Source of the DNA: an uncultured Clostridium sp.
GTDB taxonomy: Bacteria > Bacillota > Clostridia > TANB77 > CAG-508
Assembly (NCBI GenBank): GCA_900552555.1
Contig: URZW01000003.1
Coordinates: forward strand, 40,680-104,679
Direction of reading: 5' to 3'
DNA: 64,000 nt
The position numbers and the translations under genes were made by a program. The notes under the pieces are model-generated. The model made no database searches. It had not been told where the DNA came from and saw nothing but the letters and a program-made list of their open reading frames with translations. Positions 25,505 to 27,595 of the stretch are shown here, in pieces. Position 1 is the stretch's first letter. Each line of letters starts with the position of its first letter.

Positions 25505-25680
25505 GGAAACATGTAACAGTTCAGTAAAGTATAGGAATTAATTATTATAAATGTTGATATATTAATATTTTTTGTAAAAAACATAGCCGGGGTCTACCTA
25601 TAGGTCTTTTACTGCAAAATATTAATATATCAACATTTAAAGCAAATTTACAAAATTTCTTACTGAACTGTAACCTGTTT
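25505..25680. repeat. 175-bp imperfect palindrome
   Basis: Two arm pairs reverse-complement each other: 25514-25529 with 25659-25674, and 25549-25571 with 25616-25638 (perfect). GC-rich centre CATAGCCGGGGTCTACCTATAGGTC. Confidence 0.75.
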
Positions 25681-25745
25681 TGTTCAATATATTATAAAAG
25701 AAAAAAGCACAAAAACTATATTCTAAGTTCTTGTGCCTAAAAAAG

Positions 25746-26225
25746 TTAAAATACCTTATTTAGTTTTTTGCAAAATTCTACAAAGACTTCAGGTTCTATA
25801 TCAGGTATAATATAAAATTGTGCCACTACATATGCTGCAATAGGAAAATCGTTAACTCGTTGCTTTAAGTTATTTTGTACCATTGTTAAGTCCCCAAATG
25901 TTTCCATTAATAATATAATGAATGCAACTTGAGTTGGCTTTAATTTTTCATTTTCTAAGTTGTTATATTTTTGCATAACTAAACGTTTCAAATTTTCTAA
26001 AAGAATTGGCAAGTCTTTCTTAGACTCAATTTCTATGAAAAAAGGAGAATATTCATTTATAAATTTTTTGAATTTTTTCTTGGTATTATAATACCTTTCG
26101 ATGTCGCTATTATGCATTAAAGATACTACTTGAGAATCTATGCATATATGTGAATATTCTTCATCTTTTAAAGCTTGCCGAAATGCTCTCTCTGCTAATT
26201 TTTTATATTTTACTTTTTTATCCAT
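25746..26225 (-). CDS. Hypothetical protein, paralog A of a tandem pair
   Basis: 159 aa counted from the internal ATG, which is preceded by AAAGGAGGAAACATT. About 50% identical to the downstream paralog; conserved C-terminus F(V/F)EF(C/F)K(K/E)LNKVF. Confidence 0.55.
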   Translation of the reverse strand: MDKKVKYKKLAERAFRQALKDEEYSHICIDSQVVSLMHNSDIERYYNTKKKFKKFINEYSPFFIEIESKKDLPILLENLKRLVMQKYNNLENEKLKPTQVAFIILLMETFGDLTMVQNNLKQRVNDFPIAAYVVAQFYIIPDIEPEVFVEFCKKLNKVF

Positions 26226-26336
26226 AATGTTTCCTCCTTTAAGTTTGTTAACACATATATTAACATAAAATGTGATATTTTTCAAGCTAACAGAAAAAAA
26301 CACAAAAACTTAATTTAAGTTCTTGTGTCTAAAAAG

Positions 26337-26801
26337 TTAAAATACTTTATTTAATTCTTTGAAAAACTCAAAAAAATCTTCTGGAACTATATTTGGCATA
26401 ATATAAAGTTTAGATACTAAATATGTTGACATTGGCAATTCTGTCAATCTTTCTTTCAGATTATCTTGTATCCATGTCATACTAGAAAATGTTTCCATTA
26501 ATAATATAAGTTGTAATGCTTGAGTTGGTTTTAATTCCTCGTTTTCCAAATTGTTATATTTTTGTATAACTAATTTTTGTAAAGTGTCAATACAAATTTG
26601 CCATCCTTCTTTATCTTCAATATCCATAAAGAATGGGCAAGAACGATTCATAAATGCCTTAAATTCCTCCTTGTTATTGAAATCAACTTCGTCGAGGTGA
26701 ACCAAAGGATCAATTTGTAGAGAAATTAAACCTTCTTCTTCTTTTAAAGCTTGCCGAAATGCCTTCTTTGCTAATTCCTTGTATTTTGCTTTTTTATTCA
26801 T
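26337..26801 (-). CDS. Hypothetical protein, paralog B of a tandem pair
   Basis: 154 aa. Same RBS context, the N-terminus MNKKAKYKELAKKAFRQALKEEE, and the same 3' flanking terminator-like repeat as paralog A. Confidence 0.55.
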   Translation of the reverse strand: MNKKAKYKELAKKAFRQALKEEEGLISLQIDPLVHLDEVDFNNKEEFKAFMNRSCPFFMDIEDKEGWQICIDTLQKLVIQKYNNLENEELKPTQALQLILLMETFSSMTWIQDNLKERLTELPMSTYLVSKLYIMPNIVPEDFFEFFKELNKVF

Positions 26802-27050
26802 AATGTTTCCTCCTTTAAGTTTGTTAACATATACATTAACATAAAATTCAACACTTGTCAAGTTAAGCAAATAAAAGTCTGCTAACCATTTAATTTCAAT
26901 GATTAACAGACTTTTTTAAAAATTTTCATGATTTAGTCCTGTGCATAAGTTAGTTAAGAAGTATTGTTTAAAAAGATAAAATATGGTATAATTTGTTATG
27001 TACAAATATTTAATTAATTGTAGAACTATAATTATAGGAGGAGATAACAT

Positions 27051-27344
27051 ATGGATACTAAACCAAGCAATATTAACATCAAAGGACGGTTATGTGGAAG
27101 CAAATTTGAAAAAGCAGAGTATGAAAGGATAGCTGTTAATATTATTATTATAGCTATTAAGAAAAAGAATGATAATTGGTTTTCTTTTTCCAGTGATGAA
27201 TATAAAGATTTGTGCGACAACAGTGTAAGTTCACGGGAAATCGAATTGATGCAAGAAATGGCAGAAAAAGGATTTCTAAAGTGTGATGAAGAAGTCAAGT
27301 ATAGCATTACACAGAAATTTATTGATGCTTGTTTAGTTGCATAA
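27051..27344 (+). CDS. Hypothetical small protein (97 aa)
   Basis: Strong RBS TAGGAGGAG; followed by a terminator. Confidence 0.45.
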   Translation: MDTKPSNINIKGRLCGSKFEKAEYERIAVNIIIIAIKKKNDNWFSFSSDEYKDLCDNSVSSREIELMQEMAEKGFLKCDEEVKYSITQKFIDACLVA

Positions 27345-27350
27345 TTAAAA

Positions 27351-27378
27351 AGGGGCAGGAAAATATCCTGCTCTTTTT
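27351..27378 (+). terminator. Rho-independent terminator
   Basis: GGGCAGGAaaatatCCTGCTC followed by TTTTTC. Confidence 0.7.
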
Positions 27379-27595
27379 CAATGACGAAATATATTCAAAA
27401 TATCATTCAAAGGTATTTCAAGGATTTTCCCTACTGAACTGTAACTTTTGTTTTTATAAATTTGAAAAAATATAAAAAATCTCTTTTATAACTTAAAAAC
27501 TTATGATATATTATAACTATAAAATAAATATGCAAAAGTAAAAGGTTGAAAAAATTTAATTATTTTCCAACTTTAAGGAAGGAATGAGATAAAAA

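Follow-up and report, generated by a model that had tools for sequence, protein, structure and literature searches.

Does the short segment between a heavy-metal efflux gene and a glycosyl hydrolase gene of an uncultured gut Clostridium represent one cassette integrated at attachment (att) sites, or an assembly of separately acquired parts? The locus lies in a 64,000-nt stretch of contig URZW01000003.1 (assembly GCA_900552555.1), hereafter the window, to which all positions refer unless a compared locus of another strain or contig (L-numbers) is named; the host is a low-G+C, spore-forming, uncultured gut Clostridia species. An earlier note on this DNA had described a 1.76-kb accessory cassette consisting of two tandem minus-strand paralogs, here called A and B, and one plus-strand gene of 97 amino acids (aa), bordered by a palindrome and by direct repeats that might act as att-like sites. 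Our analysis indicates that the gap between the two core genes, cadA and GH18, is a strain-variable hot spot holding a mosaic of independently variable modules and not a single cassette. It is proposed, with fair confidence, that the segment is a recently spread accessory insert, in which the tandem A/B pair, with a mobile palindrome at its joint, occupies a hot-spot gap that also houses a separable 97-aa gene.

The cadA-GH18 gap in related strains

The left core flank is a cadA-type heavy-metal P-type ATPase gene (23341-25470, plus strand), an open reading frame (ORF) whose orthologues carry the Pfam domains HMA, E1-E2_ATPase and Hydrolase; the right core flank is a plus-strand gene for a GH18 glycosyl hydrolase with a Cu_amine_oxidN1 domain (27596-29287). 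At least six alleles of the gap between them exist in related strains, including two empty alleles, one with the 97-aa gene and a Band_7 gene, and three with the pair. The earlier note had suggested looking for relatives in which cadA lies next to the GH18 gene without the insert, and such relatives were found: the two genes are separated by 404 bp in L026 and L027 and by 307 bp in L029 and L030. L032 and L033 lack the paralogs; their gap contains a Band_7 gene of 580 aa together with the 97-aa gene, the latter at 87% protein identity. The pair is accompanied by an intact 97-aa gene in a 2125-bp spacer in the window, L002-L007, L011 and L013, by a 97-aa gene shortened to 79 aa in L009, L010 and L012, and by a 97-aa gene without its 5' part in L001 and L008.

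These comparisons establish the presence/absence polymorphism of the gap together with the boundaries of its modules. Homology to the empty-site alleles ends at the cadA stop codon (25470), while L032 remains collinear with the window as far as 25509 (L032 5000-5903 aligns to 24553-25509), a stretch that includes a two-way terminator hairpin 3' of cadA common to both alleles (25475-25499); L032 5904-6328 then aligns to 26954-27378. The extra segment of the window relative to the L032/L033 allele, 1444 bp at 25510-26953, is composed of a palindromic element, module A, module B and an 18-pair hairpin (26873-26915). This hairpin forms the right end of the paralog-pair insert, has no counterpart in L032 and is replaced in L036; it is probably a two-way terminator or an insulator. 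In L036 an extra 6.7 kb (L036 1004-7690) lies between the equivalents of 26871 and 26924, that is, between paralog B and the 97-aa gene, and carries two ISLre2/UPF0236 transposase fragments, an HTH_3 gene, a 150-aa ORF of apparently hydrophobic sequence, and ORFs of 1083 and 127 aa, neither of which has a Pfam match.

The 97-aa gene is present without the paralogs in L032 and L033, and is 79 aa long or 5'-deleted in the sister lineage that retains the pair. Since the gene occurs without the pair and the pair without an intact copy of the gene, the 97-aa gene is separable and dispensable. The idea of an acquired unit thus holds in part: the segment is accessory and acquired, as judged from the empty sites, the lack of any known family, the mobile contexts of its relatives and the low divergence described below, and it is not a single unit, the 97-aa gene being separable.

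Paralogs A and B and their relatives

Paralog A (25746-26225, minus strand, 159 aa) and paralog B (26337-26801, minus strand, 154 aa) are the only long minus-strand ORFs in gaps between plus-strand genes from position 200 to 30,000. The earlier note described them accurately as two minus-strand paralogs of about 155 aa and about 50% identity, with an identical ribosome-binding context and a duplicated 3' terminator, and it placed the plus-strand 97-aa gene correctly (27051-27344): A and B are 52% identical (E 1e-56), have the ribosome-binding context AAAGGAGGAAACATTATG in common, and are followed by intrinsic terminators on the minus strand at 25705-25738 (A) and 26298-26330 (B). They are tandem modules of promoter, ORF and terminator, repeated with a 591-bp period. 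The promoter of A (26257-26285, minus strand) consists of TTGAAA, 17 nt and TAATAT with TG in front, a layout that is kept 5' of homologues in other contexts. The probable promoter of B (26833-26861, minus strand), read from the sequence and unlisted by the consensus scan, would consist of TTGACA (26861-26856), 17 nt and TAATGT (26838-26833). Where 0.6 terminator-like sites would be expected in the region, seven occur. Seven homologous modules retain the terminator hairpin, 4 of whose 13 pairs show compensatory changes, and on this comparative evidence the predicted terminators of A and B are functional.

The dN/dS ratio (nonsynonymous to synonymous divergence) is 0.27 for A versus B and 0.2-0.67 across other diverged family comparisons, values which indicate that A and B are real genes; the pair is under purifying selection. 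In other strains there are B alleles with an A-type 5' end and N-terminus, as expected of conversion, and one B/A chimera (P0002), so the two copies still exchange sequence.

A and B are predicted to be soluble, all-helical proteins of about 155 aa belonging to a tiny family without annotation. Searches with single sequences and with profiles gave no Pfam, NCBIfam, PHROG, PADLOC or PDB sequence match; eight family members tested had no consistent Pfam, NCBIfam or PADLOC match and corresponded to no described immunity family, and the source databases hold no name for these proteins. Membership in a well-characterised housekeeping family, which the earlier note had raised as the counter-case, is not borne out, as A and B match no known family. 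The AlphaFold2 model is all-helical, with nine helices (pLDDT 77, pTM 0.76), and has no significant Foldseek match in PDB or BFVD, the structural comparison having been another suggestion of the note. The family comprises 13 clusters at 90% identity among 5.8 billion and, by profile search, 7 representatives among 1.84 billion proteins; among 185,579 GTDB species it is present in one, an uncultured Clostridia metagenome-assembled genome from Hadza gut samples.

DNA similarity between A/B and relatives elsewhere is confined to about 590 bp, and the conserved unit delimited by these alignments is the module running from the predicted promoter through the terminator. Several of the relatives lie in contexts of mobile character. 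In L018 a tandem pair with 94% DNA identity to that of the window follows immediately after what appears to be the 3' terminus of a tRNA gene. Beyond this pair comes an ORF of 64 aa, which shares 94% identity with an ORF beside the recombinase gene of L014. L014 itself shows an HTH_3 gene, an A/B homologue, and then a tyrosine recombinase gene and a gene for a protein resembling a recombination directionality factor; an ImmA-like metalloprotease considered for this context was dropped, as no HEXXH motif was seen on reading the alignment. In another Clostridia genome (L020-L023) a distant family member opens an islet of about 5 kb between gyrB and gyrA (around L020 8001-12528), whose genes encode a TraC-like protein, a VirB4/TraG-like ATPase, a 231-aa ORF product and an HTH_19 protein, and which looks like the remnant of a conjugative element. 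The remaining homologues adjoin tRNA-Arg and an HtrA gene in L016 and an EamA transporter gene in L024.

Our best guess as to what A and B do, which is tentative, is that they would be strongly and constitutively expressed cytosolic proteins acting in a conflict between mobile element and host (anti-defence, exclusion or immunity). This guess takes into account that the family is associated with mobile elements, has a narrow, patchy distribution and evolves under moderately relaxed constraint, and that the pair is a diverged duplication, has strong promoters and has swept recently. A more specific proposal treats A and B as orphan immunity proteins directed at a polymorphic toxin of the LXG, WXG100, RHS or CDI type, kept in tandem to neutralise several toxin variants. 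Small, cytosolic, tandem and diverged paralogs that evolve fairly fast (dN/dS 0.27-0.67) and vary between strains are consistent with such a role. However, no toxin gene or toxin-like neighbour adjoins the family members in the six contexts surveyed (the neighbours there being cadA, GH18, HtrA, EamA, gyrB with conjugation-type genes, and HTH_3 with recombinase), which weakens the immunity-array version; no Pfam immunity family or PADLOC model is matched; and A and B each carry a strong promoter and a terminator of their own, which is not typical of arrays lying 3' of a toxin gene. We therefore regard orphan immunity proteins as unlikely. If an anti-defence or immunity role of A and B proves true, a new family is added; if not, each is an ordinary accessory gene. 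In either case the paralog family offers a clean experimental target, being tiny, unannotated, under selection, equipped with strong expression signals, linked to mobile elements and recently swept.

Age and spread of the pair

Synonymous divergence (dS) was measured between the window and five other occupied strains. It is 0-0.024 for A and B, as compared with 0.018-0.105 for cadA (0.075-0.105 in four of the five strains), 0.10-0.19 for GH18 and, in four of the five strains, 0.55-0.71 for the sigma-factor gene 3' of GH18 (29341-29976), where L003 shows 0. The dS of the pair is mostly 4- to 20-fold lower than that of both flanking genes, with the exception of L004, in which the cadA dS of 0.018 is no higher than that of the pair. 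Across the occupied strains the spacer is 98.6-100% identical and the flanking genes are 90-100% identical. Because its dS lies far below that of most flanking genes, the pair postdates by far the divergence of most of its flanks and has spread by recombination, not by vertical descent.

This evidence also bears on the possibility that the pair is ancestral in the species complex and that the empty and L032-type alleles are deletions. A patchy distribution among lineages whose flanks are 88-95% identical, in a gap prone to insertions and deletions (indels), could be expected under such a history. It is opposed by the A/B dS, which is mostly 4- to 20-fold under that of the flanking genes (L004 excepted), by the occurrence of relatives with 94% DNA identity in a different context beside a tRNA gene, and by the orientation of the pair, which opposes the strand of the surrounding genes. 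An ancestral pair is accordingly considered quite improbable, and a recently spread insert remains our preferred explanation.

The sigma-factor gene and its orthologues form two deeply diverged alleles in otherwise close strains, with dS up to 0.71 and dN about 0.01, a combination that points to allele exchange by recombination.

A MITE-like element at the joint

The palindrome at the left of the segment is a 162-bp element (25513-25674) resembling a miniature inverted-repeat transposable element (MITE). It is bounded by GTTACAGTTCAGTAA and has 15-bp terminal inverted repeats, GT[A/T]ACAGTTCAGTAA, at 25513-25527 and 25660-25674, which match at 14 of the 15 positions. The outer arms of the palindrome (25507-25527 and 25660-25680) are 90% complementary, the inner arms (25548-25571 and 25616-25639) are perfect over 24 bp, and the centre (25572-25615, 44 bp) is G+C-richer. 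The single-strand fold of the palindrome has a z-score of -8.1, and the element contains no ORF of 40 aa or more. The palindrome with a perfect inner repeat that had been described from the sequence is thus real, with inner arms of 24 bp in place of the 22 given.

The motif ACTGAACTGTAAC occurs three times in the 64 kb against 0.03 expected: at 25513-25525 on the minus strand with one mismatch, which is the inverted copy reported earlier at the start of the palindrome, at 25662-25674, and at 27433-27445. A single metagenome scan for the two outer arms at natural spacing recovered one further copy and one related element. The copy, at L036 3281-3466, is 95% identical to the palindrome, lies in a different position with different flanks, has perfect 15-nt ends and is bracketed by a perfect 8-bp direct repeat, CTATTTTT, as expected of a target duplication. 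The related element, on the unrelated contig L037, has perfect ends (GTTACAGTTCAGTAAA … TTTACTGAACTGTAAC) around a different 169-bp interior and lies at the 3' end of an unrelated gene; its flanking duplication is about 5 bp only. The recurrence of the same ends in L036 and L037 identifies ACTGAACTGTAAC as the terminal inverted repeat of a MITE-like family, and on these two further instances the element is mobile. The search for the motif elsewhere that had been suggested thus gave a copy of the palindrome and a relative of it, the motif itself being limited to three copies in the 64 kb. Rfam searches at gathering and E-value thresholds returned tRNAs and noise only, a search of phage, plasmid and IMG/VR records with the palindrome returned nothing, and a literature search for the motif returned unrelated primer sequences only. 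Readings of the motif as a LexA box, a CodY box or an integron core were set aside, as on reading they misfit the sequence.

Both homology breakpoints coincide with edges of this element, that of L032 lying at 25509/25510 and that of L018 at 25675. The third motif copy has a different history. In a gapped alignment 25616-25729 resembles 27388-27494 with a score of 46 (shuffles 24.9 ± 4.3, maximum 41), so the direct repeats seen earlier exist and are longer than had been noted. The right-hand copy (27431-27445) is embedded in old DNA upstream of GH18 (27388-27470): window 27387-27562 shares 80% identity with L026 6688-6860 in the empty-site spacer, which has the motif in the diverged form TTACAGAATTGTAAT, and L032 has AACCTGTAACAATTTTG at the same position. 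In the sister lineage (L001 and L008-L010) 27396-27439 is missing and both paralogs are retained. By alignment, this right-hand region is probably what is left of one half of a MITE.

These observations speak against the proposal that the whole 1.76-kb segment, with A, B and the 97-aa gene, is one element that entered by site-specific integration at an att-like core of about 26 bp, duplicated at 25659 and 27431. Two direct motif copies of 13-15 nt do flank the three genes, and the empty site L026 does have a single diverged copy at the matching position. Nevertheless, 25471-27595 contains no recombinase ORF, and the nearest integrase gene (30274-31467) belongs to a prophage at tRNA-Thr; the 97-aa gene occurs in the gap without the pair; the right motif copy is gone from the sister lineage that retains the pair; the left and inverted copies are the ends of a discrete element that is also found elsewhere, and the right copy is ancestral to the site; and the breakpoints (25509/25510, 25675 and 26953/26954) do not coincide with the repeat pair. 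The att-like boundaries suggested earlier are therefore largely refuted. A composite, transposon-like unit made up of the intact MITE and the remnant end, with the three genes as cargo, is hardly tenable, since, although two copies of the MITE end bracket the genes and one MITE edge is a paralog-module boundary, the bracketing ends are in direct and not in inverted orientation, the site had the right copy ancestrally, no target duplication surrounds the unit, and the 97-aa gene is older than the pair at this site. The segment is in this respect a worked example of how repeats resembling att sites can come from a MITE and a remnant end.

Such elements are common in this genome, as indicated by a second, unrelated MITE-like family and by two further large palindromes. 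The second family has copies at 4923-5058, 6648-6783 and 8451-8586 (mean identity 85%, ends TGTCCATTTGGGGACGGTTCT), each in a gap between consecutive large plus-strand ORFs. The palindromes lie at 15746-15943 and 18700-18843; one is nested, with 41-nt outer and 32-nt inner arms, an architecture like that of the 162-bp MITE, and the other has 57-nt arms. A pattern match in L038 (ODGU01006440.1, around 5190-5470) proved to be tandem units of about 41 bp with the palindromic core GTTACTGAACAGTTCAGTAAC in G+C-richer DNA, which is an unrelated chance match.

Proposed origin of the segment

The recently spread insert that we favor may have formed as follows. The A/B pair would have arisen by tandem duplication of the 591-bp module, and would then have been inserted between the terminator of cadA and the promoter of the 97-aa gene, perhaps via recombination at a MITE copy, when that gene, which is dispensable, already occupied the gap. 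The MITE, which sits exactly at the joint of cadA-side and paralog-side DNA, or its copies, may have served as the recombination anchor for the arrival of the pair, and the old region upstream of GH18 probably retains, as the third motif copy, the end of a former MITE. Later transfer of the pair from strain to strain would have proceeded by homologous recombination in cadA and GH18. A bolder extension, which we consider doubtful, is that A and B constitute a new conflict family borne by mobile elements, which moves as a self-sufficient 590-bp module of promoter, ORF and terminator, diversifies through tandem duplication and gene conversion and has just swept a gut Clostridia population, possibly having been captured at the MITE as a portable anchor.

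Several points weigh against the account of a recently spread insert. The polarity of gain and loss was derived from dS and the mobile contexts, without a rooted strain tree, and the G+C content of the segment in the window is the same as that of its flanks. The window copy of the MITE has no target-site duplication, which would fit an element sitting at a recombination joint; the metagenome scan gave only the one extra copy and the one related element; and no autonomous insertion sequence (IS) with the MITE ends was found, an IMG/VR scan for single ends giving nine matches, none with a partner end, as expected of chance. With regard to the joining mechanism, the right junction (26953/26954) shows microhomology only, which is not significant. 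The A/B family was absent from phage, plasmid and IMG/VR records searched with A, P0015 and the family profile.

A degenerate third MITE end considered at the right junction (26940-26955) was rejected, because equally good matches are as common in shuffled sequence.

Comparison with known systems

Three known kinds come closest: bacterial MITEs, hot spots of integration between core genes, and orphan arrays of accessory genes. Bacterial MITEs include the Correia elements of Neisseria and the RUP elements of pneumococci. Like these, the element described here is short (about 160 bp), non-coding and highly palindromic with terminal inverted repeats of 15-18 bp, has a second copy elsewhere with a putative 8-bp target duplication, and has a relative with the same ends and a different interior. 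Unlike them, it has no known autonomous partner IS and only two to three copies were seen, the window copy lacks a target-site duplication and lies at a recombination joint, and its ends match nothing in the literature searched and no Rfam family.

Hot spots of chromosomal integration that lie between conserved core genes, also called genomic islets, are an established concept of pangenome organisation. The cadA-GH18 gap resembles them in that one gap holds different cargo in different strains, with empty, single-gene and multi-gene alleles and IS fragments. It differs in being very small (0.3-9 kb), in having no linked integrase and in carrying unannotated single-gene modules instead of a recognisable island. 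The locus shows that, in an uncultured gut anaerobe, a small gap between core genes can serve as a hot spot with multiple alleles.

With orphan immunity-gene arrays A and B have in common that they are tandem, diverged, small, cytosolic and strain-variable; unlike such genes, they have neither a neighbouring toxin gene nor a match to a known family, and they are independent transcription units. The short single-gene modules, each ending in an imperfect palindrome and arranged head to tail, recall integron cassettes, but there is no integron integrase or attI here and each module has its own promoter. The hairpins are also unlike attC sites (57-141 nt, with GTTRRRY cores), being intrinsic terminators of 33-34 nt with T-runs and covariation. 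The segment does not qualify as an integrative element bounded by att sites, as an integron cassette array or as a member of a known immunity family.

The 97-aa gene and neighbouring features

The 97-aa gene (27051-27344, plus strand) has a strong ribosome-binding site. Its promoter, by reading, is TTGTTT, 17 nt and TGgTATAAT (26964-26992, plus strand), with a perfect extended -10 element (TGgTATAAT, 26984-26992); the scan lists an overlapping site at 26954-26982. Its terminator lies at 27355-27378 on the plus strand, the hairpin (27355-27371) being listed by the scan on the minus strand and the plus-strand T-run being recognized by reading. The mutual independence of this gene and the pair makes it unlikely that it encodes a dedicated regulator of the pair. 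Six relatives of the 97-aa protein were found, all within this species complex, and searches yielded no family match, no winged-helix match at the sequence level and no relative in phage, plasmid or IMG/VR records. A 124-aa neighbour of the homologue in L016, considered as a relative of the 97-aa protein, is not one. In structure the protein models as a winged helix: its AlphaFold2 model (pLDDT 77) has a topology that fits the order alpha1-beta1-alpha2-alpha3-beta2-beta3, and its best Foldseek matches are the winged-helix domains of IclR, MarR and the PhiH1 repressor, with probabilities up to 0.99 and E values of only 0.03-0.5. The Foldseek comparison suggested earlier thus gave weak winged-helix matches for this protein, as against no significant match for the paralog model.

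The leader of GH18 varies as well. The empty-site alleles (L026 about 6862-6965, and L029) have an extra palindromic insert of about 95 bp just 5' of the ribosome-binding site of GH18; in the window a short hairpin alone stands at the equivalent place (27546-27591), and the sister lineage lacks even that. From this series of insert, short hairpin and loss, the GH18 leader is also prone to indels. An invertible promoter, considered on account of a 19-nt inverted repeat around the GH18 promoter of L026, was dropped, as the repeat is not conserved in the window.

Further features surround the locus. Upstream of cadA lies an ArsR/HTH_5 regulator gene (23010-23363). In the empty-site strains, downstream of thrS, a bAvd gene is followed by a reverse transcriptase gene (RVT_1) at L026 14064-15445 and L027 9819-11200, a locus that looks like a diversity-generating retroelement. 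A prophage at tRNA-Thr (30110-30185) occupies the window from 30110 to 64000, with genes for an integrase (30274-31467, minus strand), large terminase (45487-47166), portal (47170-48465), major head protein (49249-50421) and tape measure (53262-55475), and with a tRNA-Gln gene at 42890-42965. As the content of the tRNA-Thr site varies by strain, this site counts as another hot spot, at a distance of 2.7 kb from the cadA-GH18 gap.

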